From positions 47,049 to 111,048 of IMG/VR virus record IMGVR_UViG_3300021255_000131: 64,000 nucleotides of DNA; one strand, 5' to 3'. Below are positions 3,106-46,900 of this stretch, piece by piece. The notes under the pieces were generated by a model. That model was not told the origin of the DNA and made no database searches. It saw only the letters and a program-made list of their open reading frames with translations. Numbering within the stretch: position 1 is the stretch's first letter; each line of letters starts with the position of its first letter. The stretch is from a virus. Lineage: Duplodnaviria; Caudoviricetes. A program made the translations under genes and the position numbers.

Positions 3106-3609
3106 TTATTGATGTAGTTTGGGTTTAGCATTGGACGACGTGAGATGATAGAAATGATCATCCCGCGTCAGGATCTCTGACATCAGAGGTTTCTTTTCCC
3201 AGAAAGCTTTGAGCCTGGCGAAGCCCTGGTCGGCCACCCTGCCAATATCCGGATCGGGCACGCGCTTGATGAAGAGCGCGGGCCCTGTCTGATAGCCGGA
3301 AATATCGCACGGGAACCAGAACAGTCCGCCTTCCGGGTAGTATTTGCGCATCTTCTTGTTCTTGCGCCGGCCTGTTTGATACATCGTATCCCGCGTGCGG
3401 TAGCAGGAGAGAAAATCGATCATCTCCTCATGCCCGGTCAGCGTGGTGACAAGGACCTTCGGCATGGCGCCCAAGGTATTGTCCGGCTGAACGACGCGCC
3501 AGGGGGCGCGGCTTTCCGCCGTGCCCCTGGTTTTGCAGAGCACGTAAGAGGGAACGATGTTGCCTTTGCGCATATCCGTTTTCTTTACAATGGCGAGGTA
3601 GTAATACAT
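3106..3609 (-). CDS. Hypothetical protein (167 aa)
   Basis: ORF with AGGAGG RBS overlapping the end of the RNAP gene. Confidence 0.7.
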   Translation of the reverse strand: MYYYLAIVKKTDMRKGNIVPSYVLCKTRGTAESRAPWRVVQPDNTLGAMPKVLVTTLTGHEEMIDFLSCYRTRDTMYQTGRRKNKKMRKYYPEGGLFWFPCDISGYQTGPALFIKRVPDPDIGRVADQGFARLKAFWEKKPLMSEILTRDDHFYHLTSSNAKPKLHQ

Positions 3610-6404
3610 ACTTCCTCCTTGCGGCGCAGACGTTCTTTGACTTTGCTGGCGCGTTTAACAAGCTTCCTGTGCTTCGCCTGGCATTCCGGGCAGCGCTTTT
3701 GCCGACCATTGAGCCGGTGGCACCACTTGCCGCACTCGACACAGGTGAAGAACCCTTTGACTGCGGCGGAACAGCCGTGCTCTTCCGTCCAGACGGGCAG
3801 CTTTATGCCGCAGTGAACGCAGGTAACGCAAGTCATGAGATTCAGCTTGAGATTGCGTAATGCAATGTCTCCAAACACACGCCAGAACATTTGCTTATGC
3901 GCGGCTTTATCTTTTCCGTCGCCGACGAACAGGGTGTACGCGATGGACGGATACGCGGCTTCAATGCTGCCGCACAGCTCAGTGAGCTTATCTGTAATCA
4001 GTTCTTTGAGCGCCTCATAGCCGAAGGCGTTGTACATTTCCATAACGTCCATCATGGACGCTCCGTCAATTCTGGATTGCAGATTGCTGTCATCGAGCCG
4101 GGAAAAAAGTTCAACGGCTTCTGTGTTGATCTCCGTGACCGGAGCTTCCAGAAACATCTCGCCGTTGAAGGGTGGAACGCCTACTGCGTTTAAGTTGATG
4201 TTGCCGATATTATCAAATAAAGCGCAAAGCCTGTTCATGGTAGAATTGTTGGCTTTCGCGCACTGCTTCTTCTTTTTCGTCGTGTCTGCATGGCGGCCGT
4301 TCTTGGAGAACTGGAACCAGTAAGGCATCTTACCGTTCGGGCCGCCGATTGCTTTATTGATTTTCGCAGAGACTTCCGGATAATTGGTATAACCGTTGAC
4401 GGAACCTGTTTTGGCCCCGTCGATCGTGAGATTGTTGAAGTAACACAAAAGCGCGGCAGACTGTAAATCAGGATGCGGTCTGTTCCAAAGCCTGGTCAGG
4501 GCGTTTGAAATCTGGCCGATGCCACTGTAGTCATGCGCGCGCTTGACCCCGTGAAACAATGTTTCAAGGGAAATCTGTTCGGACGCGGCCTTGGTCGCGT
4601 CATAGAACAGGGGAACGATATCATACTCTTGAATGTTTCGCTTGGCGTTGTCGATCAGAATACGGTCTGAGACAACGTTGAGCTGATCTCCGTCTACATC
4701 GAACTGAAGAATTCTTGATATCAGATCATGACAGCTGGTGTAAATGCCGTTCGTGTAAAACCACGAGGCGATTTCCGGATCGTGATTGACGGTGCGAATC
4801 GCATGCTCGTTGAAAAGATGCGGACTCCTTAGAACATCTACCTCGTCTACATCCCTGAACGGACGGGCAAAGACTTCGCCGTTTTTCAACAAACCTTCCG
4901 GCTCCTTCTGACCGAGAAACCAGTATTGGCAAGCGGCATACAGATCCGGAATGGCAAACAGGCGTTTGTTTTTACAGCGTATTTTGCCGGACTTGGCGTC
5001 GAGCGTCCAACGCTTTTTGATTGCCTTCAAAGACTCTCTGGAATAAGCTTCGCGCAACAGCTCCGGATATAAAGTAAGCGCCTGACGATACGGGACTTCC
5101 GAATAATCGTCGGCGCCGAGCGCGTGAAGCATGTGTTCCCGGTCGTTCGAGAGGCTTTTGATCCGATCGTAGGTAGGCCTGACAAACTCCTTCAGCTCAT
5201 TCTGTGGAAAATTTTGAAGCGTTTGAATGAACTGATAGTTGAGCTCGCTGTTGCCAATGTACGCCTCTTCCATGTTGGTGCGGCCAAATGTACAGCCGCA
5301 GGTCTTGAAGAAGGATTTGTACTCATCCCAGCTGTCGTAGTACTTCCACAGCTTGAGTTGTGACTTGGTGAAGACGACCTGTATGTCTTCCGCGCGGAGA
5401 TCGTGCATCTGACCCCAGACGTCTTTCAGCTTTGCCTCGCAGCCGTTTTCCTCGCAGAAGCGTAGAAAATTAAAACTGCACAATAGGCCCTTTAAAAATG
5501 GACCTCGTATCATGAAATTCCATCTGGATACAGAAGGCAGCATCATGCCCGCGCCGTCACAATGGTTGATAACGACGGTCCGTTCGCCGCGCTCGATGGT
5601 GTAATCCGGACTGATATAATCCATCAGGCCGGTGACGGGAGCTTCAAAGTCGTCCACGACGATGCAGCGGTCAATATCGAGCGGGTAAGGATCCGTTGCC
5701 GAGCATGGCAGGGCCAAATACGCCATGAGCTTACTCGTATTAATTCCACCCCGTTCGTTGATGCGCTCCCAGCTGAGGCCGCACATAATGCGCGGCTCGA
5801 TTCTTGACCAGGCGTCGTCTGAGAGAAACTGCACCTTGTCCGTTCTGAGCTGGCCGGCCGAAGCCGTAGAAAAGCGATAGCGTTTGACGGAAACGGAGCC
5901 ATCCTCGTTCAGCACAGACATATTAAAACCCTGAAGGATGATCTGTCTTAAGATATCTTCTGATTTCCACTTGATGATAATCTTGTCGAAGGTGATGTCG
6001 TTTTCGTTCAGGCCGAGGGCGCGGGTTTCTTCTGATACGAACTCGGCGATGCGGCGGTTGGGTTTGAGCGTTTTCCACGTGACGCCCGGCGGGCGTTCTG
6101 GAAGCGTTGGATCGAGGACGGCGCTGAGATTCACCGTCCGGGGGACATGCTCGTGCGAAGCGATGAGCTTGGCGAGAGCGTTTTGCTGTACACGTTTTTC
6201 ATTGACGATTTCCTGACGGTTAGGTACGGTATCATTCAGCATGCGTTTCAAACGGGCGATGTTGAAGAAAATCACGCGCTCCTCGTCAGTCAGCAGATCG
6301 TACGTAGAGAAACTTGCGAGGCGGATTTGACTGCTCAGATAAGATTTGTTACTCGTGAAACCACCTCTTTTGAAAAGTAAAGCGGCATGTGCCGCTGGGT
6401 GCAT
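3585..6404 (-). CDS. Single-subunit two-barrel DNA-dependent RNA polymerase (YonO-like), RNAP-1; true start uncertain, possibly ~6356
   Basis: SAGQLRT, HCDGAGM...FMIRGPFLKG, VLRSPHL, catalytic QFDVDGD (4686-4700), C-terminal CxxC Zn ribbons. Confidence 0.88.
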   Translation of the reverse strand: MHPAAHAALLFKRGGFTSNKSYLSSQIRLASFSTYDLLTDEERVIFFNIARLKRMLNDTVPNRQEIVNEKRVQQNALAKLIASHEHVPRTVNLSAVLDPTLPERPPGVTWKTLKPNRRIAEFVSEETRALGLNENDITFDKIIIKWKSEDILRQIILQGFNMSVLNEDGSVSVKRYRFSTASAGQLRTDKVQFLSDDAWSRIEPRIMCGLSWERINERGGINTSKLMAYLALPCSATDPYPLDIDRCIVVDDFEAPVTGLMDYISPDYTIERGERTVVINHCDGAGMMLPSVSRWNFMIRGPFLKGLLCSFNFLRFCEENGCEAKLKDVWGQMHDLRAEDIQVVFTKSQLKLWKYYDSWDEYKSFFKTCGCTFGRTNMEEAYIGNSELNYQFIQTLQNFPQNELKEFVRPTYDRIKSLSNDREHMLHALGADDYSEVPYRQALTLYPELLREAYSRESLKAIKKRWTLDAKSGKIRCKNKRLFAIPDLYAACQYWFLGQKEPEGLLKNGEVFARPFRDVDEVDVLRSPHLFNEHAIRTVNHDPEIASWFYTNGIYTSCHDLISRILQFDVDGDQLNVVSDRILIDNAKRNIQEYDIVPLFYDATKAASEQISLETLFHGVKRAHDYSGIGQISNALTRLWNRPHPDLQSAALLCYFNNLTIDGAKTGSVNGYTNYPEVSAKINKAIGGPNGKMPYWFQFSKNGRHADTTKKKKQCAKANNSTMNRLCALFDNIGNINLNAVGVPPFNGEMFLEAPVTEINTEAVELFSRLDDSNLQSRIDGASMMDVMEMYNAFGYEALKELITDKLTELCGSIEAAYPSIAYTLFVGDGKDKAAHKQMFWRVFGDIALRNLKLNLMTCVTCVHCGIKLPVWTEEHGCSAAVKGFFTCVECGKWCHRLNGRQKRCPECQAKHRKLVKRASKVKERLRRKEEVCITTSPL

Positions 6405-6435
6405 CCGCGCTGACTTTTGCGCGGATGTAGGAAAT

Positions 6436-6633
6436 ATTGAAAACCGGAGGCATCGTCTCTAAGTTGTTCTACTCCGAGGATCGTTTCGGCGGTGGCTGCC
6501 ACCAGGCGTAGCCTTGGTGGCAGCCTGAGCCGAAACGAGCCGAGAAATCGTAATTTAAGACGAAGCTCCTGATGACATCAAGAGTGCTAAACCCGCAGGT
6601 AAAGCCAGTGCACGATGCCTCCGGTTGTTCAAT
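6436..6633 (-). ncRNA. Retron-like msr/msd ncRNA located downstream of the RT gene
   Basis: Perfect 15-bp a1/a2-like inverted repeat (6442-6456 / 6612-6626, extendable to ~21 bp with one bulge); G at 6611 (minus strand) right after the 5' arm; two short msr-like stem-loops; 58-nt msd-like hairpin at 6481-6538. Confidence 0.75.
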
Positions 6634-7784
6634 CAGTTTGCATAACGCAATGCTTGTTTAATCATTACGTTTTTGTCGTACCACCAGATGTGAAACTTCC
6701 CTTTGGTATGATCGAACACATGCTTGGTGAATTCTGGTTCGATATAGCTGTAGTAGCTCCAGCGGCCGATGAAAGATTTGACCCAATCTTTTGACAGCGT
6801 TCCGCGGAAATTCTTGACGAAGTTGTACATATCCGCTTTGAAGAGCCGTTTCACCTGATGGCCGATGGTGATCTTGTGATCGGCGTTCAGCATGTAGCCG
6901 AGATTCCAGTTCGCGCCTTTGATGCTGCCATATCTGGTCTTTTTGCTGTTCAGTTTATAAGGATAGCCCAGCCTGAACAGGAGACCAAGGACATCGTGGT
7001 GGATGATGTATTGTTTGACGTGGCTGAAGTCGCCATAGCCTGAGATCAGACAATCGTCCGCGTAGCGGGTGTAGACATAGCCCGATCCCAGGACCCTGGT
7101 CAGCTCATAATCAAATGGGATCATGATCAGATTGGTGAGCATGGGGGAAAGCGTTGTGCCCTGCGGCAAACCGCCACGCAGGAACGCGTAGCTCAACGCC
7201 TTTTCGAGCTTTGCTTTTCTGGCCGGATCCTGCATAAATGTATTGAACGGCCAAATTGCGCCCAGAATATTCATGACTGTCGCGAGCGAAGTCGAGCCAA
7301 AGAAATCATGAAAATCGGTCTTCAGGAAGTAACTGCTGTTCTGATGCCGCTGGATGCACTTGTAGGTGTTGCGATAGCGGACGTAAGCGTAGGCCGCGCT
7401 GTGATACAGCGCGAAGAACCGCCTGCGGAGAATTTTCTCGATTTCTTCATGAACTTTTCTGAGCTCAGGCTTGGGATCATCGATGGGCCTGACGCCGCCG
7501 GAACGCTTTGGGATGGTGTAATGCTTGTACCAGCTTTCCGGATCGCCGGTGACGGTTTTCTCCGCCAGATCGATCACGGCGTCGAGCGCGGTCTCGGCCG
7601 CTTCCGCGTCAAAAAGGTAGGAGAATTCCTGCGGGACGGTGTTGGTTTTGATTGTTTTCGTCGCTGCGGAGCCGTACATGAAGTTGCTTTCAGCGCCCGG
7701 AATCTCAGGATCAGTGTCCATCAGAAGAGACATGTATATTTGTTCTTCGTTTGTTTTGCCAAAGAGGCGCCGCGTAATGTACAT
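6633..7784 (-). CDS. Retron-type reverse transcriptase (383 aa)
   Basis: YTIPKRSGGVRPIDDP, AYAY, KTDFHDFF, LPQGTTLSPMLTN, YTRYADD, LNSKKT; region 7 reads WNLG instead of VTG. Confidence 0.9.
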   Translation of the reverse strand: MYITRRLFGKTNEEQIYMSLLMDTDPEIPGAESNFMYGSAATKTIKTNTVPQEFSYLFDAEAAETALDAVIDLAEKTVTGDPESWYKHYTIPKRSGGVRPIDDPKPELRKVHEEIEKILRRRFFALYHSAAYAYVRYRNTYKCIQRHQNSSYFLKTDFHDFFGSTSLATVMNILGAIWPFNTFMQDPARKAKLEKALSYAFLRGGLPQGTTLSPMLTNLIMIPFDYELTRVLGSGYVYTRYADDCLISGYGDFSHVKQYIIHHDVLGLLFRLGYPYKLNSKKTRYGSIKGANWNLGYMLNADHKITIGHQVKRLFKADMYNFVKNFRGTLSKDWVKSFIGRWSYYSYIEPEFTKHVFDHTKGKFHIWWYDKNVMIKQALRYAN

Positions 7785-7794
7785 TTTAACTCCT

Positions 7795-8466
7795 TTACAG
7801 GGCGAGAACGTCCCAGGTTTCCGTATTGATCAGGATGGTTTTCTTGATGGTTTTCTTCTTGACGAAGTCAAGAAAGTTGACGACGCCGCAGGTGACGATC
7901 ATACGAACGGTGGCGGCGACGCCCAGTGTGACGCGGCACGCGGACATCGGCGTCTCCTGTGCCGCTTCCTCATGCGTGAATTGCATTGAAGCGATGAACG
8001 CTTCTTTCTGCTTTTCATTAGACCAGTCCGCCGCGTAATGCTGCGCGTCGGTCAGGCGTGTTCTGAAATCGAACATAGCCTTGATGAACGGATTGCTCTT
8101 GTTCTCTTCAGCAATCTTACGGCGCAGCTCGATATTATCAACGCAGAGGAAGACATAGCCGCTCAGCTTCTGATTGGTGTAGCCTTTGTCCGCGACGCGC
8201 AGAGATTCCGCGATTTCCGGGTTAATGGCCACAAGATGATCAGCCAGGGCTGTCACCTTTTCTTTGCCGATGTCCGCCGAAGTAAACATCTGGTTAACGA
8301 TGTTCTTGGGCTCAACGTAATCGAAATCATAGAGCGTGATGTCCTTGAGCCCGTAACGAACAAGCAGCTCCGCAAGCGTAGAGCCTACGGAGCCGCAGCC
8401 GATGATATGGATACGGCCTTCCGCCATGGAAGGCTGAAAGAAGTCATAGCTTTTCGACAGATCCAT
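7795..8466 (-). CDS. ThiF/E1-like adenylating enzyme
   Basis: IIGCGSVGS nucleotide-binding loop, DFDYVEPKNIVNQ, CVDNIELR, candidate catalytic Cys in TPMSAC. Confidence 0.9.
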   Translation of the reverse strand: MDLSKSYDFFQPSMAEGRIHIIGCGSVGSTLAELLVRYGLKDITLYDFDYVEPKNIVNQMFTSADIGKEKVTALADHLVAINPEIAESLRVADKGYTNQKLSGYVFLCVDNIELRRKIAEENKSNPFIKAMFDFRTRLTDAQHYAADWSNEKQKEAFIASMQFTHEEAAQETPMSACRVTLGVAATVRMIVTCGVVNFLDFVKKKTIKKTILINTETWDVLAL

Positions 8467-9296
8467 TACGAATAACTCCTTCCGTACGGATAGCCGCGAC
8501 CGTAAGGCGCCGTGCCATCGTCAAAAAGATCGTCGTAATCTTCGTACGGGTCCTCAGCGGCCTTTTTTTGCTTTTCCTTTTCCTTTTTCTCTTTCTTTCC
8601 GCCGTTGATAACCGTACCTGTAAAGACCGTTTTTTTAACCCTGGCCTGCGCGGCCTGAATGAAACTCGTTTTGGTGTAGGTGTTGTCCGTGCCGCCGTAG
8701 TCGAACACGATGGAGAGATCGATATCCTTCGTTTCATACATGACGTTGTTCGGGATATCGTAGATAGCGCTGCTGATTTCACCCTTCTTGTTCCAGATCT
8801 GGAAAATCCAGGCTTTATCAGGATCAGACGCCTTCATCAGATTCGCTCGGTGCGTCATATCGGTCGAGGAAGGGAACACGGCCATATTGACATGACTGTG
8901 ACCGTGAAAGAACATATGATCCGCCTGGTCCTGTGTGAGATGCTGCAGGAACATCGGGTAGCTGTTTTCGCCCTCGTAGACGGTGTTGACGGTCGTGCCG
9001 GTCACCTCCTGATCGTACACGAGGACGTCGTAGACGAGCCAGGTTCTGTCGCTGGTCTTGCGTACCAGGGCGTGCCAGCCGACCTCAGAATCGAATTTCT
9101 GAACGAGCAGCAGCATCTTGATGTACGCTTCCGCGGAATATGAGATGGTGGCGCGTTCTTCCGGCAGCGCGTCGCGGGACGCGAAGCTACGGGTGAAGGT
9201 GAAGTGTCCGTCGGACAGACGAGCCGTCTCGAGCTCCTTCAGGAACTCCTGTCTCATTTTCTCTTTATCGGCTTCGGTAATTGTAATCGGTTTCAT
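8466..9296 (-). CDS. JAB/MPN+ metallopeptidase (deubiquitinase-like)
   Basis: SEVGWH ... FHGHSHVNMAVFPSSTD fits the JAMM motif E..HxH(x7)SxxD. Confidence 0.85.
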   Translation of the reverse strand: MKPITITEADKEKMRQEFLKELETARLSDGHFTFTRSFASRDALPEERATISYSAEAYIKMLLLVQKFDSEVGWHALVRKTSDRTWLVYDVLVYDQEVTGTTVNTVYEGENSYPMFLQHLTQDQADHMFFHGHSHVNMAVFPSSTDMTHRANLMKASDPDKAWIFQIWNKKGEISSAIYDIPNNVMYETKDIDLSIVFDYGGTDNTYTKTSFIQAAQARVKKTVFTGTVINGGKKEKKEKEKQKKAAEDPYEDYDDLFDDGTAPYGRGYPYGRSYS

Positions 9297-10645: not shown

Positions 10646-10667
10646 AGTTACTCCTTTTGTTTAAGAG

Positions 10668-10694
10668 GCTGCCGCGAGTAAACCGCGGCAGCCC
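10668..10694. terminator. GC-rich hairpin between the Ubl and E2-like genes
   Basis: GGCTGCCGCG-AGTAAAC-CGCGGCAGCC; no clear U-tract. Confidence 0.4.
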
Positions 10695-10701
10695 TGAATG
10701 A

Positions 10702-11316
10702 TTACTGAATGGTGATGAAGCCCTTGATCTTCTCCTGATCCGCGTGGATGGACGCGACGGCGTCAGCGAAGTTCTCCTCGATCTTGTTCAGATAGAGCAG
10801 GCCCATGCCGATCTTGTCGGTCAGCTGGGCTTCGATATCATTGTCGCGGTCGACGCACATTGTGATGGTGGCGTAGCCTTCCTGGTTCGTGGCCTCGGAG
10901 AAGGTGGCGCCCTTATCGTTGATAGAGCCGGAGGAGCGGGTGGTCACGTCGATGCCGAAGAGCTGCTCGTTCTTCTTATCGTCCTTGTAGAGCTTCAGAG
11001 CCTCGGGGCGATACTTCTTCGCGAGCTGAATATCCTCGAGCTTCAGCGCGGAGGTGACGACAGCGGCTTCACCGATAACGGTCACGGTGGCGGCGTTATC
11101 CGCCTTCACGACGACGGACAGGTAGCAGGCATCCTCGATACCGTGCTGCGCGAATGTCTTATCGAGATCGCCGGGACGCAGGGAGCATCCGTCGATCTGG
11201 GTCATGCCGACGGAATAGTTGACGCGGTTCTCGTCGAGAACTTCGCGGACGGTGGCGTCTTCAGAAACGTTGATGGTTTTGCGGCCGGAATTGGTGATGA
11301 GGGTGATCTGGATCAT
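10702..11316 (-). CDS. Ubiquitin-like (beta-grasp) N-terminal domain (aa 1-75, ending KADNA) fused to a ~130-aa domain of unknown function
   Basis: MIQITLITNSGRKTINVSEDATVREVLD...IDGCSL...DLDKTFAQHGI...YLSVVVK parallels the ubiquitin pattern; AAAGGAG RBS before ATG at 11316. Confidence 0.72.
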   Translation of the reverse strand: MIQITLITNSGRKTINVSEDATVREVLDENRVNYSVGMTQIDGCSLRPGDLDKTFAQHGIEDACYLSVVVKADNAATVTVIGEAAVVTSALKLEDIQLAKKYRPEALKLYKDDKKNEQLFGIDVTTRSSGSINDKGATFSEATNQEGYATITMCVDRDNDIEAQLTDKIGMGLLYLNKIEENFADAVASIHADQEKIKGFITIQ

Positions 11317-12781: not shown

Positions 12782-12784
12782 GGA

Positions 12785-12855: not shown

Positions 12856-12934
12856 ATAAAAAGAGCCTGCGTGCCGAACCTATAGCACGCAGGCTTGCGC
12901 AGAAAGGATTGCTGACTTGTTTCACATCAGCAAC

Positions 12935-15397: not shown

Positions 15398-15428
15398 TCA
15401 TCATGGCTGCGGCCCGTCCCCGGGCCGC
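15398..15428. promoter_or_regulatory. Hairpin motif A, copy 1
   Basis: TCATCATGGCT-GCGGCCCG-TCCC-CGGGCCGC; seven covarying copies between 15.4 and 19.1 kb. Confidence 0.6.
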
Positions 15429-15461
15429 CCTGCTGGCGTAAAGACCAGCTGGGGAGGGGCG

Positions 15462-15641
15462 TCAGGCTTTCAATAAGCCGGTCGCAGGAAGCGGCGCTTT
15501 CTCGCCGAGATATTTGCTGAGCGTTCTGGCGATCTTGAGCCACGCTTCTCTGTCGTGTTCTTCCCTGGCGATCTTGTTGAGCACGCAGCCCATCGTCGGG
15601 TCGAGCTGCTTGGAGCCGTTGTAATACAAGCTTTTATCCAT
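15462..15641 (-). CDS. Small hypothetical protein (59 aa)
   Basis: AAAGGAG RBS, MDKSLYYNG... Confidence 0.65.
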   Translation of the reverse strand: MDKSLYYNGSKQLDPTMGCVLNKIAREEHDREAWLKIARTLSKYLGEKAPLPATGLLKA

Positions 15642-15673
15642 ACGACAATCTCCTTTCAGGCTACGTAAACCTT

Positions 15674-15704
15674 TCATCCTGGCTGCGCGGCGTCCCCGCC
15701 GCGC
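15674..15704. promoter_or_regulatory. Hairpin motif A, copy 2
   Basis: TCATCCTGGCT-GCGCGGCG-TCCC-CGCCGCGC. Confidence 0.6.
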
Positions 15705-15810
15705 CCTGCTGGCGTAACAACTGCCGGGCAGCGAAAATAAAGCACTTGTGCCGGCTTTCTATGGTTAAAAAAGTGAACTTAAAATGCGAAAAATGTAACA
15801 GAAATTTAAC

Positions 15811-15839
15811 TTGACAGCGATTTTTCGCGGCAGTATAAT
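15811..15839 (+). promoter_or_regulatory. Consensus sigma70/sigmaA promoter, antisense to the early arm
   Basis: TTGACA-17 bp-TATAAT with an A-rich UP region. Confidence 0.8.
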
Positions 15840-15855
15840 GGAATCCCGAGAAAAA

Positions 15856-15885
15856 CCACCATGGTGCCGCCCGTCCTCGGGCGGC
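15856..15885. promoter_or_regulatory. Hairpin motif A, copy 3
   Basis: CCACCATGGT-GCCGCCCG-TCCT-CGGGCGGC. Confidence 0.6.
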
Positions 15886-15992
15886 GTTGCCAAGAAGATA
15901 GAAACGAGCCAAGCAAGAACAGTGAACATTAGCTTGGCCGGCTTAAGGCGAGATATGGTTATAAACATGTATAATCTGGTACCAGAAAATAC

Positions 15993-16020
15993 TGTCGACA
16001 TTCAAGAATCGATATATATG
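15993..16020 (+). promoter_or_regulatory. Phage-specific promoter-like motif B, copy 2
   Basis: TGTCGACATTCAAGAATCGATATATATG-GAAAG. Confidence 0.65.
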
Positions 16021-16587
16021 GAAAGAGAAGCCCAAAACGCAGAAGTACGCGAATCGCGTGAAGCGCGATTCGCCTGATAACTACACGACGGTTAAAAGAT
16101 AACCGAAGTGAAGCTGACAGGACGGCATTGAATAAAGCGTCGTTCCCATGGAAGGAACGACGCGCTGAAACAGTGAAAACTTAGGCTTGAAGAGAAACGC
16201 AGGACCTGCATAACAGGACCTGCAATGAAAAATATCTCCCGTCGCCCATGGAAGGCGACGGGAGGGTGATGAAGATAACATGTCTAAAGAAAGAAAAGAA
16301 CCTCGAAGCTGACACGCTGAAGTCAAAAGAAAGAAACGAACTTTCTTTCTTTTCAGGCACGATGAAGATAACTACAGAGGGTAGAGAGATAACACCTCCT
16401 CGATATAGGAATAAAAAAGGAATCAAAAGGACAAAACTGTGAAAGAACTACTCGTGCTTCTGAGTAAACACAAGATATTGTATCCGATTCCCCTCCTTTC
16501 TACTACATCTTGATATATCTCCAATATTGCTGATATATCACCTCTTTTCCTGTTATCGTTCGGCATGGTTTTAAGTTAGCAGTGTAA

Positions 16588-16625
16588 ATAGGGGAGCGCC
16601 GGTGAAGCGCTCCCCTTATTTTTTA
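16588..16625 (+). terminator. Rho-independent terminator, possibly bidirectional
   Basis: GGGGAGCGC/GCGCTCCCC stem followed by TTATTTTTT. Confidence 0.7.
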
Positions 16626-16925
16626 CATATGCACGTCGTAGCCTTTCAGCCAGTCAGGATTCACCGCCATTGTATCCGCTAACACGGTGAACTTGTCATC
16701 TTTCGGGCAGTACTTTTCATGTTCGTAGTTGTAGACATCCTGGTATGAAATTCTGATGCCGGATCCGTTGGCTTTCAGGTTTGCCATTTTGACGAGCTGT
16801 ATTCTGGACATGGGCTTACCGTCAACACCGTGCATCGTTCTCCACTGGATAGAGCGTTGGCCGAGCGTAGCAACTTTGTGGGTGGACACTCTGCGATAGG
16901 CTACCGAATTGTAGGGATACATCAT
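16623..16925 (-). CDS. XRE-type helix-turn-helix protein
   Basis: SRIQLVK...ISYQDVYNYEHEKYCP...LADTMAVNPDWLKG. Confidence 0.72.
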   Translation of the reverse strand: MMYPYNSVAYRRVSTHKVATLGQRSIQWRTMHGVDGKPMSRIQLVKMANLKANGSGIRISYQDVYNYEHEKYCPKDDKFTVLADTMAVNPDWLKGYDVHM

Positions 16926-16940
16926 AATACGTTTCCTCCT

Positions 16941-17351
16941 TTACGGGCGCGGCAGTGATACTGCGTTCCATTCACGGGCAAGAGACTCGCCTTTGGCTTT
17001 CGACCAGATATAGCCTATTAGCCGGCTGTCGTTGGTAGCATGGTTGGTCCAGCCGACACGATACGCTGATTCGGGCATGATGGCGTGATCATACTTGCCG
17101 ATTTCACGGACGTCTCCTTCATCGAAGACGATCTCGTGAAACACGGGCTTGAAGATTGTACGATCGTACTTGTTATCGGCGTGCGATGGGAACTGGATGA
17201 ACATCGATCTGTCATTGACGATCTGCGTGCGGTATTCGGTGTCACTGACCTTGTGAAATTCACCAAGTCCTTTTGCTCCGGACATTGCTGTGACGATACT
17301 CATCACGTCCGGTTCATCAATCTCTGGTACGACGACTACTTTTCTCTCCAT
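16941..17351 (-). CDS. Hypothetical protein (136 aa)
   Basis: AAAGGAG RBS; ORF in the regulator cluster. Confidence 0.72.
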   Translation of the reverse strand: MERKVVVVPEIDEPDVMSIVTAMSGAKGLGEFHKVSDTEYRTQIVNDRSMFIQFPSHADNKYDRTIFKPVFHEIVFDEGDVREIGKYDHAIMPESAYRVGWTNHATNDSRLIGYIWSKAKGESLAREWNAVSLPRP

Positions 17352-17382
17352 AAAAAACTCCTTTCAAACCTGAAGTTAAATA

Positions 17383-17414
17383 TCATCATGGTCCCCGCCC
17401 GTTTCCGGGCGGGG
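17383..17414. promoter_or_regulatory. Hairpin motif A, copy 4
   Basis: TCATCATGGT-CCCCGCCCG-TTTC-CGGGCGGGG. Confidence 0.55.
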
Positions 17415-17429
17415 CAGTGAACAGCCTCG

Positions 17430-17777
17430 TTACGGACGATTGTAGCGCGCGGTGCTGACTTCCGCGACGCGGCGGGTGACGATGAGTTTGCTGGATCCAT
17501 AGCCGCAGAGCCAGGACGTGCTGACGCCCATGACCTTGCACAGGACGGTCATGTTGTTCATCTTCGGCGTGCAGCGGTTGTGCACGTACGAGTTGATGAT
17601 GGACTTGCTGAAGTTGACGCCGTAGTGGCGGCCATAGACGTTGCAGGCCCTGGTGAGCTCCGCCTGCGTCGTGCCGGTCTGGATGAGCCAGGCCTTGATG
17701 CGATCACCGATATACTCGGTGCGTTTGGTGTAACCGTGTTCCATCTTCTGCCACGAGCAACTGTAAGGCTTATTCAT
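17430..17777 (-). CDS. XRE-type helix-turn-helix transcriptional regulator
   Basis: IGDRIKAW...TQAELTR...SKSIINSYVHNRCTP...LCKVMGVSTSWLCG. Confidence 0.82.
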   Translation of the reverse strand: MNKPYSCSWQKMEHGYTKRTEYIGDRIKAWLIQTGTTQAELTRACNVYGRHYGVNFSKSIINSYVHNRCTPKMNNMTVLCKVMGVSTSWLCGYGSSKLIVTRRVAEVSTARYNRP

Positions 17778-17812
17778 GTGTGTTACCTCCCAAGATTATT
17801 GAAGTGATGACT

Positions 17813-17842
17813 TCACCATGGCGCCGCCCGTCCTCGGGCGGC
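17813..17842. promoter_or_regulatory. Hairpin motif A, copy 5
   Basis: TCACCATGGC-GCCGCCCG-TCCT-CGGGCGGC. Confidence 0.6.
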
Positions 17843-17950
17843 ATTCAGCATCAGCCTGCTGAACCAGGCTTCGAACGGTCAACAGGCATGTTACGAGAAA
17901 AAATATAGGGCCCCGCAAAAATAGGGGACCCTCATACATAGACGGTGTGC

Positions 17951-18418
17951 TTACTTAACGGGCGTCACTTCGATCAACTGTAGTTTCGCCAGATCACGCT
18001 GGGCGCAGGCTTCCTCGTCGCAGCGCTCGTTCAGGGGATGACCGGCATGACCCTTCACTTTAGTGAAGGTAACCTGATGGATGTCAAGCTGGTTCTTGAG
18101 CGCGGTCCAGAGATCGACATTCTGGACAGGCTTCTTATCCGCCTTGACCCAGTTGTTGGCGATCCACTTGTCTAAGTAGCCGCCGTTGATCTGGTCGACG
18201 ATATAGGCCGAGTCCGTGAGGACTTCAACTTCACAGGGAAAATGGAGCTCCTTGAGGCCGCGCACGACGGCTCTCAGCTCCATGCGGTTGTTGGTGGTCT
18301 GTGGGCTATTGCCGGAGACCATCATTTCACGGTCTTGACACTGCAGGATCGCGCACCAGCCCCCGGGGCCTGGATTGCCGGAGCACGCGCCGTCTGTAGC
18401 GATGGTCACGTGATACAT
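17951..18418 (-). CDS. rnhA: Ribonuclease HI
   Basis: TDGACSGNPGPGGW, TTNNRMEL, TDSAY, NVDLW, VKGHAGHPLNERCD. Confidence 0.96.
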   Translation of the reverse strand: MYHVTIATDGACSGNPGPGGWCAILQCQDREMMVSGNSPQTTNNRMELRAVVRGLKELHFPCEVEVLTDSAYIVDQINGGYLDKWIANNWVKADKKPVQNVDLWTALKNQLDIHQVTFTKVKGHAGHPLNERCDEEACAQRDLAKLQLIEVTPVK

Positions 18419-18430
18419 AAGATGTCCTCC

Positions 18431-18601
18431 TTAACGAAAATCGCGGCGGACCCTTTGCGGGTGCCGCCGCTTGTTGTAATTGAGACGCCAGCGCGGGAAG
18501 CGCTGACGCAGATTCCAGATGGCTTCAGTAGATTCGAGCCAGATGATGTCGCCGAGGATCAGGATGGTCAGGGCGGCGACGATGATGAACAGCGTCAGCA
18601 T
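18431..18601 (-). CDS. Small membrane protein (56 aa)
   Basis: Manual translation MLTLFIIVAALTILILGDIIW...basic tail; GAGGTG RBS. Confidence 0.6.
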   Translation of the reverse strand: MLTLFIIVAALTILILGDIIWLESTEAIWNLRQRFPRWRLNYNKRRHPQRVRRDFR

Positions 18602-18753
18602 TTAGTCACCTCTTCGATGACGACGAAGCTGAAGCTTTCGCAGCGGCCCATTGTGGTGACCCAGTCATAACGAAGCTCGGCGTTGTGTCTGGTTTCGTCA
18701 TAACCGTGAATAATGAATCTACCGTCGGACAGATACTCGATGACTTTGAACAT
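18595..18753 (-). CDS. Small hypothetical protein (52 aa)
   Basis: AAGGAGG RBS; MFKVIEYLSDGRFIIHGYDE... Confidence 0.6.
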   Translation of the reverse strand: MFKVIEYLSDGRFIIHGYDETRHNAELRYDWVTTMGRCESFSFVVIEEVTKC

Positions 18754-18919
18754 ATACAGATCCTCCTTCTGCATTGCAATAAAATAAGCGCTGTGTGGCC
18801 AGCGCTAACCCCGGCGAGGCTTTTCGGGTCACCGATCCCGCTGCGGTTTATCGCGGTACGCAGGATATACCGGAAGAGCCTTACGTCTTCAGCCCGGTTG
18901 GCCAAAGGCGTAAAACTAT

Positions 18920-18950
18920 TCATCATGGCCGCGCGCCGTCCTCGGCGCGC
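18920..18950. promoter_or_regulatory. Hairpin motif A, copy 6
   Basis: TCATCATGGCC-GCGCGCCG-TCCT-CGGCGCGC. Confidence 0.6.
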
Positions 18951-19025
18951 ATCTTGGGATACATTTTGCCGGAGAGTGACGATGCACAAACACCGCACAG
19001 ACCGGACAGGAGTGCAATAATGCAT

Positions 19026-21219: not shown

Positions 21220-24033
21220 TCAGAAGTCCATCCCAGCCAGCCAGGAAGGTAATGCTGCCTTCCTGGCCTTTTCTTCGTGCGCTTCAACGCATTCCTGGCG
21301 GAACGTCTTCTCCGGAATAACGGCGGGCAGTATGGTACGCTCCTGTTTGTTTTCAGCGAGGATATCGCCGAAGCACTCCAGAATCGCCATCAGGTGACGC
21401 GCGGCGAACTTCTTGTTCCATTTGTCGTGGGCATGCGCCACATGCTGACGCAGAATCGCGGCGGCAGTCCAGCGAGCCAGCTCGTCGTCGGACATGTTGC
21501 CCTTATTGACACCTTGCATGAACGCAAGCGTCTCGTCGCGGACGTACTTGTAAGCGCTCAGCATTGCCTCTTCGTATTCAGCCGCTTCAAACGACGCTTT
21601 CGCGATCTTCTGGACTGCGCTGCTCAAAGTTTCGAACAAGAAGTAGATCGAATATTTTGTGTCTGCTGCGAAGACCTCCTTGCCGAGCATGTCGTTGTAT
21701 TCCTTGACCTTTTCAGCAGGAAGCACGTCGTTGCGCACCATGCGCACGTTTGCGCTGCAGCCGCCAGGCATCGCGATTTCCCAGCGGTAATCGATCTTAC
21801 TGAAGTCCGGCGCCCACTCGGAACCGCCGATGATCAGGTTGACCTGGTGGCCGAACCGATCTACGATGGACTCTGATTCGGGCAGGGTTTTCTCGTCCCA
21901 TCTCTGGTCGTTCCAAGGAGTTTCATCACAGTGTTTTGCAAACCGCTGGTTGTAAGGCATCGCGTTATAGTTTTGCCCGACGGTGCGAGCGATTTCCCGG
22001 AGCGCCTGCGGAAGCACGCCCGTCTTGATGTAGTCCAGAATCAGGATGGTCAGCACGTGCGGGATCGCCGCAGTTTCCAGGATGCCGCTGATGACGGAAG
22101 GATCCATGTCGATCCTGCAATCGTTCAGGATCTTGGTGCAGAGGTTGGAGTAGACGCCAACCTCGTTGTACCGTTCAGCGTCGATCATCATCTGAGCAGT
22201 CTGATTCTGCCACTCGTCCGTCTTGGGCAGCTTGCCCTTGGGTGCTTTGTCGTGGTCGAAGATCACGCAGGGCGGATTGACGCGATTGATGACTCGCTCC
22301 ATCAGGGAGACGAGCAGCGGATTCGAGGACCAGAAGCCCTCGTCTCCGTCGTTGTCACCGTCCCAGTAGCCGGACAGAACAGTGCTGTTCCACGGCAGGA
22401 TCATCATGTTGCCGCAAACGGCGAGCTCATCGTGCACCTCTACGTGAAGCACACGAGCGTTCAGCAGGTTGGCGGGATGGCGAATACCATAGATTTTCCG
22501 GCCATTTTCTACGCCGGTGACGCAGCAGGTCTTGCTGCTGTTGAAGACGCCGATCTTCTCCTTGGCCGGGTCCTTGCCAAAGACCCAGACGTCGATCAGG
22601 GCGTAGGGGTCCATAGCAATATATTCATAATGAGATTCTTCGATTGCAGGCGAGATCATTGCGTCTGCGTACTTGTTGTTAAACAGGTCTTCCAGGTGGT
22701 TGATGATGTCTTGATTTGCCACATAGTCCGGGAAAGCGCGGAAGAACTTGGCGGCGTTGCCGCATTCCTCCTCGTCGGCCCAGGGTTTTTGTAGTTCCTT
22801 TACACAGCCTTCAACTGTTTTCAGCTGCTTTACGCAAATGGCCTTAGACGTACCGAGCTTCCTAAGCTCGGCGTTGCTGGTGTAGACCAGCTCCTGCAGC
22901 GCCTGGCGGGAGAGATTTCGTTTGTCGCCTTCTGCCTTGTTGGCGAAGCCGCACACACGCAGCTCATCGATGCCGAGGGTTTCGAACGTGGTCCGATAGT
23001 CGTCGAGGCTATCAAACCATTTGAGGCCTTTGCAGCACGACTCGCTGAGAATGATATAGATACCATCAGTCGAGCGCCAAATGCCCTGATAATCTTTGAT
23101 CTTATCCGGTATATTCTCGACGATGGCGACGACGGCCATTGTCTTGTTGGTGCCGAGGCGACCCTGAAGGGAGAGGAAATTCTTGGTATCCTCGAGGCTA
23201 CGAGCGATGATTACGGACTGACCGTCGGCGATTGTTGCGTCCTCTTCGGATTCGGGAACGTATTTGATTGCGCCGGTTTTGGCGTCAATTTTCAACACGT
23301 TGGTATACTTCAACTGCCAGTTGAAGTCCTTAACGATGATCGCGTTCTTCAACGCTATCTTCTTCAAACCAAACCGACTGACCGGCACGCTGCCGGAGAA
23401 CAGCGTGCTAAGTACTTTGTTGTATTCTACGGGGTTGGTGCCCCTGTCGAACTGCTCCTTGGTGCGGAGCAGCGCGAGCTCCTTCTTGTATTTGGCCTGA
23501 ATGTCGACGCGAATAAGAAGAGATTTGCCGACCTTCAGGTAGGAAGGCGTTGAACACAAGTATTTCCAAACAAGCTGGCCAGACTGGATGCCCAGCTTCT
23601 GCAGGTTCTTGCCGACCTGCTTTTTGATTTGGCCGACAAGGAAGAAATATTGTTTTGCTTGATCCGCTGTGAAGTGGATTTCACAATTGAATTTCAGAAG
23701 GTTGTATAAGTGGTGTTCGAGTACGACGACGCTGTCGTCGAATTTATCGTACTCAATGTGGAGCATATCAGCTCCAGCGGATTCATCCATTGTAATGACC
23801 TTGGGGTCATCAATGGAAATGGTGTAGGGAACGGTGCGCTCCCGCTCCAGCTTCAGGATTTGCTGGGCGGCAGAGATCATTTTCTGGCAGATGTTGTCTT
23901 TCGAGTATAACGCTTTATTGAAGATGTCTGTCTCTTCCTTCGGGAAGAAGGCGGCCTGGCTGAAGGACCAGGTCATATAATGTTGTTTATTCAGGGCGGG
24001 AGCTTCAATGGCGCGTTCGATAACCTTAGACAT
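21220..24033 (-). CDS. Second single-subunit two-barrel RNA polymerase, RNAP-2 (937 aa)
   Basis: IADGQSV...LQGRLGTNKT, GIRHPAN, catalytic WDGDNDGDEG (22342-22356), VGVYSN. Confidence 0.8.
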   Translation of the reverse strand: MSKVIERAIEAPALNKQHYMTWSFSQAAFFPKEETDIFNKALYSKDNICQKMISAAQQILKLERERTVPYTISIDDPKVITMDESAGADMLHIEYDKFDDSVVVLEHHLYNLLKFNCEIHFTADQAKQYFFLVGQIKKQVGKNLQKLGIQSGQLVWKYLCSTPSYLKVGKSLLIRVDIQAKYKKELALLRTKEQFDRGTNPVEYNKVLSTLFSGSVPVSRFGLKKIALKNAIIVKDFNWQLKYTNVLKIDAKTGAIKYVPESEEDATIADGQSVIIARSLEDTKNFLSLQGRLGTNKTMAVVAIVENIPDKIKDYQGIWRSTDGIYIILSESCCKGLKWFDSLDDYRTTFETLGIDELRVCGFANKAEGDKRNLSRQALQELVYTSNAELRKLGTSKAICVKQLKTVEGCVKELQKPWADEEECGNAAKFFRAFPDYVANQDIINHLEDLFNNKYADAMISPAIEESHYEYIAMDPYALIDVWVFGKDPAKEKIGVFNSSKTCCVTGVENGRKIYGIRHPANLLNARVLHVEVHDELAVCGNMMILPWNSTVLSGYWDGDNDGDEGFWSSNPLLVSLMERVINRVNPPCVIFDHDKAPKGKLPKTDEWQNQTAQMMIDAERYNEVGVYSNLCTKILNDCRIDMDPSVISGILETAAIPHVLTILILDYIKTGVLPQALREIARTVGQNYNAMPYNQRFAKHCDETPWNDQRWDEKTLPESESIVDRFGHQVNLIIGGSEWAPDFSKIDYRWEIAMPGGCSANVRMVRNDVLPAEKVKEYNDMLGKEVFAADTKYSIYFLFETLSSAVQKIAKASFEAAEYEEAMLSAYKYVRDETLAFMQGVNKGNMSDDELARWTAAAILRQHVAHAHDKWNKKFAARHLMAILECFGDILAENKQERTILPAVIPEKTFRQECVEAHEEKARKAALPSWLAGMDF

Positions 24034-25420: not shown

Positions 25421-25774
25421 AATGTTTCCTCCTTGCGGCTGTGCCGATAATCGTTGTTTGAAGGTTAAATTTAAGAATCTATAATCAGCATATTGATTAA
25501 GATTCTTAACCTTCGATTGAATAATATATCATGACGGCCAAAGTGTAAAGGACAACTTTTGCCGTTGATACAGGGAACATCAGCGAACAAATCTGATGTG
25601 TTATCAGGATAATTCGCCGATGTGCGAGGACTCGTCAAGCGATTTGTCAAGATGGAACTTTTCATGAAGCCAACTTAACAAATGCTTAACATTTTGCTCG
25701 ATACAGTTTCGCGTTCCGTTTCGGCTCATGCCATCATCGGGTCTCGGACTCTTACCGAGACGACGGAATTGCCC

Positions 25775-25803: not shown

Positions 25804-25809
25804 CAAGGG

Positions 25810-26186: not shown

Positions 26187-26197
26187 TTGCCAAAAAA

Positions 26198-26227
26198 CAT
26201 GTCGACATTCAAGAATGGATATATATG
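26198..26227 (+). promoter_or_regulatory. Phage-specific promoter-like motif B, copy 3 (head of the late operon)
   Basis: CATGTCGACATTCAAGAATGGATATATATG, identical to the copy at 2386-2415. Confidence 0.75.
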
Positions 26228-26282
26228 GAAAGAGACGAGGGTCTCTGACCAAGATTTTATGATCAATTCAAGAGGTGTTTTT

Positions 26283-43963: not shown

Positions 43964-46900
43964 ATGGCAGACGAAATTGAACTATCAGTACATATAGACA
44001 ATCAACAAGCACTTATGTCGTTGACAGAATTAGAAGTCAAAGCCGGTGAGATGAGTGAAAGTGTTCAGCAAATGCAATCTGGTATGACAACGCAGCTTCC
44101 CGGTTATGCTGAAGGTATGGCGTTTCAGTATTCTCAATTTCAAGACAACCTGCAACGACTCATCGACTTAAGGCGAAGTATAGATACTGCATCCAGCAGT
44201 TTCGATGCAGATCGTTTGACAGAATCATTTACAAGGTCTTTAAAAACTATCGAAAACGTTTATAAAGATTTTACCGAAAACTTTCAATTTTCCAAAACGA
44301 TTGAAAGCAATCTGTCAGGCATGGGAGACGCTGTTAAGAACAATCTTCTTTCGTCTCTCAGAGAATTACAACCTGAATTGATTGGTGAACTACGGAAATT
44401 CGCAGCTTCGGCAACGCAGGCAGTCGGAGCACAAACAGATAAAAGCTTATTGAATATGTTTGCCGGCAGCGACGCATTTAAGAGACTACAGAGACAATTA
44501 ACACAACGTACTTCTGCTTTTGGCGGTTCTGACGACAGCTCTCTGCATAATCTTCAAACTCTTGCAAAATTAAGTATGCCATTTGCTGTCGCTCAGTATA
44601 ACAGACAACAAATCGTTGACTGGTTTGATAAGACCAATGCTCCCGAAACTTTTAGACAAATGCTTCCTAAAAGCTTTCAGACGATTCCGGCTTACCTTAA
44701 AAATACTCAACTCAGACAACGCGGGAGCAATGCTGCAGAAAACAGGCATTTGACAAACGATGAGAAGAAGGCTTTAGAAAGTATTATAACATCTGATTCG
44801 TTTGCCCTTGATGCCGCAGTTTCTCAGGGTATCGCCAGAAAGCATAACGGACGTATTTTTCTAAACGAATATACAACCAGAGAAATGATTAACGCTATGG
44901 CCGGACGTGTCATGCACGACATCGTCAACGGCGCTCAGGGCGAAGCGCGTTATGGAATTACTGATGTTGAAGATCCAGATGTCTTTTATAAGATCATTCG
45001 CAAAAACAATAAGATGCTGACTGGCAGTTTACAAACTGCCAGAGTGATGAACGATCGTTTTGGATCATGGTTGAATCCCGGATATTATGAAGCGTCTAAA
45101 GGTCGGTTTTCTGAAGGCGGCAAAGATTTAGGCACCGTTCGATTCGCACCGAGAATCGATACGCGCGCTTTTGCTGAATATACGCTCGATGAAATGAAAC
45201 ACGGCGCACAGTTCGACGGGCAACCAGTGACGGAAGAAGGAAGACCAGTCAGGCCAGAAGACTACCATCAGATCACATTGCGAGACAGTATTCATCACAG
45301 AAAATTACGCGCAACGCAGGCCGGTGACAATGTTGAACATAATGGTTTCAGCAGAAACGCTATCTACTTAAAAACTCCAGAAGAAGCTTACGATTATGAA
45401 ACTTCACCTGAAAGATTAAAAGAAATAGAAAAAGATTTAGCCGAAAGAATTGAAAATGGTTATACTGTCAATGGCAGACATTATTCATACGTCAGGCACA
45501 ATGCAACTCATGCCGAATTTGTTCTCGACGATATTATCAAAGAATTAGGCGGCGGGGATTTTGAAAAAGGCAGAAACGTATTTTTAAACGGTGCGCAAAG
45601 ACGATATACGGATCCTGTCAAATTTCATAAGGCGTTAGATTATCAAAATAAGACAGCTACCGACTCTCAAAGGATTGCTGACTTATATGGATCAGACTTA
45701 CGTGGCGCAAAAGTAGTTGTGTCTAACCTTAAAGAGCTCGGTATGGACGGCTTCAATTTAATAAGTGATGAAATTGTTCCGGCCAGCTTTCAAGGCAGAG
45801 AAAATGAGGCAGCCGAAAAAGCTACATATGTTAAGTTCAATATGGCCGGCTTACGAAAACTTTATAAAGATAAAATTGATAGTCAAGGCAATCTTGTTAT
45901 CCCTAAAGCTGCGCCTGGCGGACAAGATTTAGTTATCGGGCCGGATGTTACAATGATAGAAGACCAGGCCAACATAAAAAACTTTGATAGCCTGTATCGT
46001 GACAAAAAAGGAAATCTATTACCTCTTGAAGCAATTAATGCCGCCAGAAGCCAAGTTATGCAGCGCGGGGATCTTTCAGCCAAAGTAACATATGAAGGCG
46101 CTAATACTGAAAAAAGATGGTTGTCTCATCAGATGGTTCAGACTTTAGGTCCTGTTTTTACTCCTGAACTTCGGAAATACTTTATGCAAAATGTTTTCGA
46201 TGAATTAGCTTCGCTTGGTGACGACGAAACTGTACGTAGGAAATTATTTGGCGGGCAAAATATTGATTTAAATTCTCCTGCTGCTCAGCAGACTATACAG
46301 GATTACAGAGATTCTATTTTTGAAAGAATATCTCAAGGTGACCTTTTGGGTCCTGAAGGCGGTATTCAATACGGAATGGCTGCGCCGTGGGTTCCCAGCA
46401 TCGTCAACAAAGCATTGAAGCGTGCTGGAGTTTCGCTAACAAAAGAGCAGGAAAACGCTGCAATCGACGAAAACAACGTTTTATTCATGAACATGCTTGC
46501 CGATACGCTGGGCATTGTTCGCGCTCCGTATTCAGCAGAAGGCAACATTGTCGCCGGTAATGAAGCAGTAAAAGATAATTTTAAAGCATTGGTAAAAACG
46601 CTGGGCCTTGACCCGAATGGTTTATATATGGCGCCTGGCGCTCCAATGCTCAGCTTTATGCAAACAGAAGACTTTGACGGCGACATTAATGCTATCATGG
46701 ACTTAAGCGGCCAAGGCGTTAGCCGGAATAATCCACGCTTTGCTGCCGCCATGAATAAGCTAATGACAGACGCTCAAGCGTGGTACCAAAAAAACATTGT
46801 CGAAAGATCCGGCAGAACACAAGAAGAGCAAGAAGCATTAAAAGCTCAACGTACCATTCAAGCTGCTAATCAGCCTGGTGCCGTGTTCGACATGTTTGAT

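Follow-up and report, generated by a model that had tools for sequence, protein, structure and literature searches.

Three single-chain two-barrel RNA polymerases in one uncultured gut or rumen phage and their possible division of labour in time

Single-chain two-barrel RNA polymerases (RNAPs) serve as models for the ancestor of the cellular RNAPs and, to our knowledge, the only ones that have been studied are YonO of phage SPbeta, gp66 of a crAss-like phage and the two enzymes of phage P23-45. In SPbeta, the late operon is transcribed by YonO from a start site that lies downstream of yonO (PMC5467207). In P23-45, the polymerase gp96 is fused to the tape measure protein (TMP), is carried in the virion and makes the pre-early RNA, including that of the gene for the non-virion RNAP (PMC10770324). 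Here we describe a stretch of 64,000 nucleotides (nt) from an uncultured gut or rumen phage, referred to below as the window, which corresponds to bases 47049-111048 of the IMG/VR record IMGVR_UViG_3300021255_000131 (111,048 bp, 107-bp terminal repeat, rated complete). It encodes three enzymes of this kind: RNAP-1 and RNAP-2 are free proteins encoded in the leftward, early arm of the genome, and RNAP-3 is a domain of a giant TMP encoded in the rightward, structural arm; the two arms are divergent and both begin at 25.4-26.2 kb of the window. We consider it most likely, with a probability of roughly one half, that the three polymerases divide the transcription programme of the phage in time.

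The first-pass annotation of the window had pointed to three open reading frames (ORFs) with polymerase motifs, i.e. RNAP-1 (939 amino acids (aa), DVDGD), RNAP-2 (937 aa, DNDGD) and RNAP-3 (DFDGD, within the TMP), and all three are found at these places with these motifs. Among the long ORFs (>100 aa) of the whole 111-kb genome the pattern DxD[GA]D occurs in exactly these three, and one further match lies in an ORF of 97 aa. The remark that three two-barrel enzymes in one phage would be exceptional holds up well, since all three are homologous to two-barrel RNAPs and are not chance matches of a motif; a literature search, whose coverage is incomplete, gave no phage with three RNAPs and no TMP fusion of the YonO type, and only P23-45 as an example of TMP-fused RNAPs. 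The enzymes were also said to share little beyond the catalytic motifs. This is true as far as the low identity is concerned (21% between RNAP-1 and RNAP-2), but it understates the relationship, as all three can be aligned in register at four motif blocks spread over about 450 residues. Aligned across the three families with hhalign, these blocks are DG..FQGR..K / QGR..K / FM.R..K, then R.LS.Q..Q.L, R.P and DxDGD. The last is the metal-binding motif of barrel A, and the RxP strand that precedes it is present in each enzyme, again in register (LRSP...FDVDGD in RNAP-1, IRHP...DNDGD in RNAP-2 and VRAP...DFDGD in RNAP-3). Within each family, DxDGD and RxP vary little or not at all and, together with basic residues of the second barrel, they are conserved across all three families. 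All three proteins carry the two-barrel fold or the family signature with conserved catalytic residues, and they are very probably active transcriptases. A search of the genome with PF00940, the family of the T7/N4-type enzymes, gave no match, the control genomes being likewise without one, and none of the three ORFs matches it in Pfam. A six-frame search of the genome with PF05183 also gave no match and missed even RNAP-1, and phmmer searches of PDB sequences with the three enzymes returned nothing meaningful.

RNAP-1 (3585..6404, minus strand; DVDGD at aa 569-573) can be regarded as a clear orthologue of SPbeta YonO. It matches the family profile phrog_8308 over the full length (4.7e-176) and has 35-37% identity to YonO of SPbeta-like phages (36.8% over 80% of the length for SPbeta YonO). 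More than 1900 homologues were detected, many of which come from contigs of 100-150 kb. Its assignment to the two-barrel RNAPs rests, at the level of sequence, on this homology and on the Pfam family RdRP (PF05183), which it matches at 2e-5, only just past the cut-off. Like YonO, RNAP-1 is a single-chain two-barrel protein with a mass of about 100 kDa and belongs to a large phage, which in the present case bears an integrase; downstream of the polymerase gene, and on its strand, there is a candidate promoter. SPbeta differs in that it has one such enzyme: tblastn found there neither an RNAP-2-like gene nor an RNAP domain within the tape measure protein. On its upstream side (6437-11316, minus strand) RNAP-1 is adjoined by an RVT_1 reverse transcriptase (6633-7784, E = 1.4e-16), a ThiF/E1-like gene (7795-8466) and other ORFs, and the intervening spacer (6405-6632, 228 nt) is highly structured.

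RNAP-2 (21220..24033, minus strand) is the third substantial gene of the leftward arm and carries DGDNDGD at aa 558-564 (DNDGD at aa 560). It matches phrog_8308 at 2.3e-22 over its entire length and has no Pfam match. BLASTP aligns it with RNAP-1 over 447 aa with the DxDGD motifs superposed, and the hhalign comparison of the two families gives a probability of 99.8% and an E-value of 2e-27 over 556 columns. A word-seeded search found 8 homologues, among which DGDxDGD is invariant; neither RNAP-2 nor the RNAP-3 domain had a match in a sequence search of GenBank phages. The AlphaFold2 (AF2) model of RNAP-2 is poor (mean confidence, pLDDT, 58; 8-sequence alignment); still, its best nine Foldseek matches are RDR2 and QDE-1. 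For the fold we set this model aside and relied on the profiles and on the ESM Atlas model, whose alignment with phage clusters of the RdRP type covers ~720 residues at template modelling (TM) scores of 0.65-0.67; the feature score is 0.98. The first-pass annotation had allowed for RNAP-2 lacking the two-barrel fold; the profile matches, the Foldseek matches to RDR2 and QDE-1 and the TM-scores of the ESM Atlas model all speak for its presence. On profiles and models there are thus strong grounds to consider RNAP-2 a very divergent YonO-like paralogue.

The TMP is a single open frame of 5918 aa (43964..61720, plus strand), recognised by its place among the tail genes, after those for terminase, portal and major capsid protein, and by a match to PF10145 (PhageMin_Tail) at aa ~2025-2228 (E = 4e-23). 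The RNAP-3 domain occupies aa ~326-1117 (44939..47314, plus strand) within a conserved block of aa ~200-1250, and DFDGD is found at aa 903-907 (nt 46670-46684). For the first 1300 residues of the TMP there is no Pfam, PHROG or PDB-sequence match, i.e. RNAP-3 stands outside phrog_8308 and is kin to the YonO family at the profile-profile level only (hhalign E = 1.6e-5 to the RNAP-2 family and 1.1e-4 to the RNAP-1 family). Its AF2 model, based on a 27-row alignment, has a pLDDT of 84.9 and a predicted TM-score (pTM) of 0.81, and the top 25 rows of a Foldseek search against the PDB (printed ranks 1-27) are all single-chain two-barrel RNAPs. The E-values are 1.8e-11 for QDE-1, 2.2e-7 to 1.9e-4 for RDR2 and 8e-5 for P74-26 gp62, and weaker for P23-45 gp64 (1e-3), crAss gp66 (1.1e-3) and gp96 (0.09). 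A second structural aligner (VIA) gives QDE-1 a Z-score of 18.2 over 524 residues, followed by RDR2 (14.5), gp62 (13.1) and gp96 (10.7), after which come isolated double-psi beta-barrel domains and the large subunits of multisubunit RNAPs. Against BFVD, the best matches are phage 'RdRP' proteins of the YonO type. In 43 aligned homologues, D903/D905/G906/D907, R853/P855, F609-Q610-R612-K619 and Q723 are near-invariant. The predicted structure thus marks RNAP-3 as a genuine two-barrel RNAP domain. An exhaustive HMMER search gave 71 cluster representatives (clusters at 50% identity), mostly of 3.7-6.1 thousand aa, which share the same architecture: the domain is located at residues ~200-1200 and the remaining part of the protein carries the tape-measure signature PF10145. 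No cultured phage was matched by this family. A pattern scan of genome contigs gave no prophage copy of RNAP-3, and a separate search later gave copies in contigs of metagenome-assembled genomes (MAGs).

By structure, RNAP-3 and RNAP-2 match QDE-1 and RDR2 (PF05183) best, and the Pfam match of RNAP-1 is to the same family, but these are eukaryotic, RNA-dependent enzymes of RNA interference that have about 10% identity to the phage proteins and no phage context. Another known protein to which RNAP-3 can be compared is gp66 of the crAss-like bacteriophage phi14:2 (PDB 6VR4), a virion-delivered single-chain two-barrel RNAP that aligns with RNAP-3 with a Z-score of 6.4 over 560 residues. This is a much weaker match, however, and gp66 is a free protein of 2180 aa from a podovirus that is not fused to a TMP.

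The comparison with P23-45 shows likeness in arrangement and difference in descent. Both phages have a giant TMP (5002 aa in P23-45) with an N-terminal two-barrel RNAP that bears DFDGD, a free RNAP in the early region, and distinct classes of promoter motifs. On the other hand, phmmer found no sequence similarity of the enzymes described here to gp96 or gp64, and the hhalign scores were non-significant, gp96 and gp64 being single sequences, which lowers the sensitivity. In structural terms, QDE-1 (Z = 18.2) is a nearer neighbour of RNAP-3 than gp96 is (Z = 10.7; Foldseek E = 0.09). The phage described here has two free RNAPs where P23-45 has one, a mesophilic Firmicute host and an integrase, and the late genes of P23-45 use the host RNAP. 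RNAP-3 therefore resembles the P23-45 type in being N-terminal in a protein with a tape-measure signature at tail-gene position, but phmmer, hhalign, Foldseek and the Z-scores give no closer kinship to gp96 than to the other two-barrel RNAPs; it is closest to the YonO/QDE-1 branch and to the free polymerases of the same phage. By analogy, RNAP-3 may work like gp96 without belonging to the gp96 family. Since it is nearest to the enzymes of its own phage, and gp96 clusters with gp64 of P23-45 (PMC10770324), we infer that the TMP-RNAPs of the two phages arose by two independent events of duplication and fusion.

Related complete genomes have kept the trio as well as the order of its genes. G001 (108 kb) and G002 (151 kb), both with terminal repeats, carry the same three polymerases in the order found here. 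Their RNAP-1 (939 and 942 aa, respectively) is 51-53% identical to the one in the window, the second YonO-like gene (806 and 859 aa, DYDGD) comes first among the large genes of the early arm, and the TMP-RNAP (5006 and 5658 aa) has DFDGD. The genome G003 (151 kb) contains a split RNAP-1 and an RNAP-2-like gene, and no RNAP-3, and two further relatives (G004, G005) are fragments that hold subsets of the polymerases as their length permits. In one Acutalibacteraceae MAG (G006), two contigs (C1 and C9, 100 and 136 kb) each have an RNAP-1 relative and a TMP-RNAP. The conservation is uneven: the second paralogue evolves very fast and reaches ~59 bits between lineages, against 940-990 bits for RNAP-1. 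Two side observations concern these relatives. The RNAP-1 of G003 (L020/L022, G003:C1:133896-137406) is interrupted at about residue 570-578, beside DxDGD, and its two ORFs lie ~700 bp apart, which could reflect an intron, a homing-endonuclease insertion or a split gene. The two phage-sized contigs of G006 suggest a double lysogeny or the binning of two related phages.

The first-pass annotation also mentioned two private repeated motifs, and both exist, motif A in 4 full copies and motif B in 6 perfect copies against 0.08 expected. The core of motif A, the dominant repeat of the genome, is GACATTCAAGAATGGATATATATGGAAAG. By our own count, its hexamers TCGACA and TATATA are separated by a spacer of 12-14 nt, a spacing unlike that of sigma-70 promoters, and the motif is positioned 20-60 nt ahead of the ribosome-binding sites of operon-initial genes. 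One copy (26193..26235, plus strand) stands at the head of the packaging/head/tail operon, with a terminator-like hairpin before it and a ribosome-binding site and ATG at 26283 after it. Another (61743..61785, plus strand) is placed between the TMP stop codon and the next tail gene, i.e. before the distal tail operon, a position that is kept in G002. The copy at 2381..2409 (minus strand) heads the replication module (genes for a protein like the single-stranded DNA-binding protein (SSB), primase/helicase, exonucleases and DNA polymerase); the RNAP-1 gene is on the same strand, ~1.2 kb upstream of this copy. The remaining copy (15986..16028, plus strand) is antisense within the leftward arm and has no convincing plus-strand ORF downstream; it may give rise to an antisense RNA that shuts off early transcription once the motif A promoters fire. 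A hairpin follows this antisense copy (15986-16620, plus strand), and a terminator-like site is seen ~600 nt downstream of it (16590-16616, plus strand).

Elements of the motif A type are found at the same places in the relatives as well. In G001, the copies of the element TTCGAGAAT-N3-TATATAGGA include one 88 nt ahead of RNAP-1 and one close to where the structural arm begins; in G002, TTTCGAAAA-N4-CATAATGGAG heads the structural arm and recurs immediately behind the TMP and 136 nt ahead of RNAP-1. In SPbeta, no motif-A-like sequence was found in the yonN-yonK spacer or upstream of yonK. RNAP-1 and motif A are thus both conserved, while the second paralogue is barely alignable and the hairpin elements described below are lineage-specific. 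RNAP-1 is the best assignment for motif A because of the YonO precedent and because of this joint conservation, and by this analogy it probably, though not firmly, reads the motif.

The six motif B elements are located at 15399..18952 on the minus strand (CCA starts at 15406, 15682, 15864, 17391, 17821 and 18928), and a rigorous scan found perfect copies on this strand only. Each unit consists of a perfect GC stem of 8-9 bp, a 4-nt loop, 1-2 nt and CCAKGRTG. The stems vary in sequence but the pairing is kept by compensating changes, and two copies lie 40-44 nt upstream of start codons. The ATG of the motif was considered as a uniform start codon and rejected, the reading frames being inconsistent among the copies. 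In G001 and G002, hairpin elements of another kind, peculiar to each genome, stand upstream of genes in the early arm. The virion RNAP of coliphage N4 uses DNA-hairpin promoters, and the motif B elements are hairpins too. As RNAP-2 is located at the head of the early arm and its hypervariability parallels the lineage-specific hairpins, it is the best, albeit weak, candidate for an early-to-middle polymerase that uses motif B. The phage has two SSB-type genes, one just downstream of the motif B cluster (14822-15226, minus strand; Pfam SSB, 1.6e-21) and one that is the first after the minus-strand motif A (1929-2327, minus strand), and these may matter if the motif B hairpins serve as single-stranded DNA promoters in the N4 manner.

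The first-pass annotation saw no clear sense-strand sigma-A promoter for the early arm. This has to be revised, as a consensus scan finds a sigma-70-like candidate, TTTACA-17-TATTAT (25549-25521, minus strand; 10/12 matches), ~100 nt before the first early gene. Between this candidate and the first early ribosome-binding site, an operator-like palindrome, TTAAGAATC-N21-GATTCTTAA (25472..25510), can be read from the sequence. A search for a sigma-70 region-2 domain, in which the positive control worked, gave no phage sigma factor in the genome. The adjacent ~480 nt between the two arms (25700-26180) have no convincing ORF and contain many inverted repeats, with a terminator-like hairpin at the end (26162-26178); this structured region has no Rfam match, the only Rfam matches being tRNAs. 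In SPbeta, an unannotated non-coding RNA is found at the equivalent position, upstream of the YonO-dependent operon.

The layout of the genome, in which RNAP-2 heads the early arm in this phage as in the relatives, RNAP-1 follows further down the arm and a conserved promoter-like motif precedes the late operons, fits a temporal division of labour. In such a programme RNAP-3, with or in place of the host sigma-A RNAP, would transcribe the head of the leftward arm, whose first large gene is RNAP-2; it would most likely act as P23-45 gp96 does, on the first DNA that enters the cell. RNAP-2 would then transcribe the rest of the leftward arm, including RNAP-1, and may use motif B as start or control signals. 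Finally, RNAP-1 would initiate at motif A, by which the replication module would be switched on together with two operons, that for packaging/head/tail/TMP and that for the distal tail. After induction of a prophage, the opening step would be left to the host RNAP alone. A three-stage succession of polymerases opened by an injected enzyme, as proposed here, is known from coliphage N4; its enzymes, however, are T7-like and not two-barrel, only two of them are phage-encoded, and its virion RNAP is a free ejection protein of 3500 aa that is not part of the tape measure.

Several observations weigh against this programme, above all in its strict form. The sigma-70-like candidate and the operator-like palindrome stand before the early arm. 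The integrase implies that no virion RNAP is present after induction, so that the host RNAP probably must start the programme in that case. Motif A is not confined to the late operons but also stands before the replication module, and in G001 and G002 an element of its type is found 88-136 nt upstream of the RNAP-1 gene, which would mean autoregulation or another polymerase reading motif A. The motif B hairpins could equally well be terminators, RNA-processing sites or other RNA signals, which is why their link to RNAP-2 is weak, and the AF2 model of RNAP-2 is poor. The relay suggested in the first-pass annotation therefore fares unevenly: the layout fits a division in time, but the sigma-A-like site with its palindrome, the integrase and the placement of motif A weaken the strict relay. 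The full order RNAP-3, RNAP-2, RNAP-1 as written is plausible but unproven, with odds that are even at best. It is rather doubtful that the more elaborate version applies as a whole, namely a cascade built wholly from paralogues of one ancestral YonO-like gene, in which the capture by the TMP is convergent with P23-45, the early copy reads lineage-specific DNA-hairpin promoters and the late copy motif A, and which is independent of the host RNAP on infection in a phage that is nevertheless temperate.

Some of the same observations can be read differently. The sigma-70-like site followed by the palindrome, and likewise the integrase, would suit a two-stage programme started by the host, in which the sigma-A RNAP transcribes the whole leftward arm with RNAP-2 and RNAP-1 at infection as well as at induction, and RNAP-3 is just an auxiliary booster at infection (e.g. 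for outrunning defence or host shut-off) and no obligatory opening stage. SPbeta yonO depends on the host RNAP (PMC5467207), relatives of P23-45 that lack the TMP-RNAP exist and still express the non-virion RNAP, and G003 has RNAP-1 and an RNAP-2-like gene without RNAP-3. However, the promoter is a consensus match only, in a region where 29 such sites were found against 15 expected, and the catalytic residues of RNAP-3 are near-invariant in its 43 homologues, down to 23% identity, which argues for a selected enzymatic role. We consider a host-started programme of this kind unlikely. A different wiring of the phage enzymes appears less probable still. Here RNAP-2 would read motif A and so switch on RNAP-1, replication and the late genes, or RNAP-1 and RNAP-2 would act in parallel on separate promoter sets; the motif-A-type elements that in G001 and G002 immediately precede the RNAP-1 gene, and the motif A copy before the replication module, can be taken in this sense. 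Yet motif A is conserved where the second paralogues are almost unalignable and RNAP-1 is conserved, and YonO is the late-gene polymerase in SPbeta.

It may also be asked whether all three proteins are DNA-dependent transcriptases, as at least one could be primase-like, RNA-dependent or part of an anti-defence function, or RNAP-3 could have lost catalysis and persist in the TMP as a structural relic. Among solved folds, the nearest are indeed the RNA-dependent QDE-1 and RDR2, RNAP-1 adjoins a reverse transcriptase and ThiF/E1 gene set, and the early-arm proteins are ORFans. We nevertheless consider this highly improbable, given that YonO, crAss gp66 and P23-45 gp96 and gp64 are DNA-dependent RNAPs of the same fold and that DxDGD, RxP and the basic residues of the second barrel are retained in all three families.

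Three diverged paralogues with candidate cognate promoters in one genome represent a natural experiment on specificity, in which the fold is the same and the promoters and the mode of delivery differ. The fusion of an RNAP to a TMP is not peculiar to one thermophilic phage, as mesophilic Firmicute phages of gut and rumen have it too, in a family of considerable size (71 clusters at 50% identity), and its probably independent origin bears on the question of how proteins pass through long tails. Compact, orthogonal pairs of RNAP and promoter are useful in practice, too.

As for the remaining genes, the rightward arm begins with an HNH endonuclease, large terminase, portal and major capsid protein, leads to the 5918-aa ORF and wraps round into further tail genes. 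The leftward arm (54 kb) contains early genes whose products are mostly ORFans in searches of Pfam and PHROGs, RNase H, SSB, five tRNA genes (Ile-TAT, Gln, Ala, Tyr and Asn; 12708-13504, minus strand), the ThiF/E1 and reverse-transcriptase cluster and a Sak annealing protein. In its later part follow the SSB-like protein, primase/helicase, exonucleases, a 1058-aa DNA polymerase, thymidylate synthase, PhoH, RNA ligase and endolysin, with a tyrosine integrase as the last gene. The integrase (phrog_1, 1e-62; G000:C1:18938-20254, minus strand) is outside the window at the far end of the arm, and the endolysin lies further upstream in the arm. As the integrase makes the phage look temperate, we are apparently dealing with a temperate siphophage. 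Strong Shine-Dalgarno sequences serve as its ribosome-binding sites. Among genomes, the closest relatives of RNAP-1 are on contigs of 100-136 kb binned with Acutalibacteraceae and Ruminococcus MAGs, so the host probably belongs to the Oscillospirales (Acutalibacteraceae or Ruminococcus). The composition of the window is split, with 50-55% G+C in the leftward arm (1-24000) versus 39-47% in the TMP/tail region (42000-64000), and the latter has a strongly positive GC skew and AT skew.

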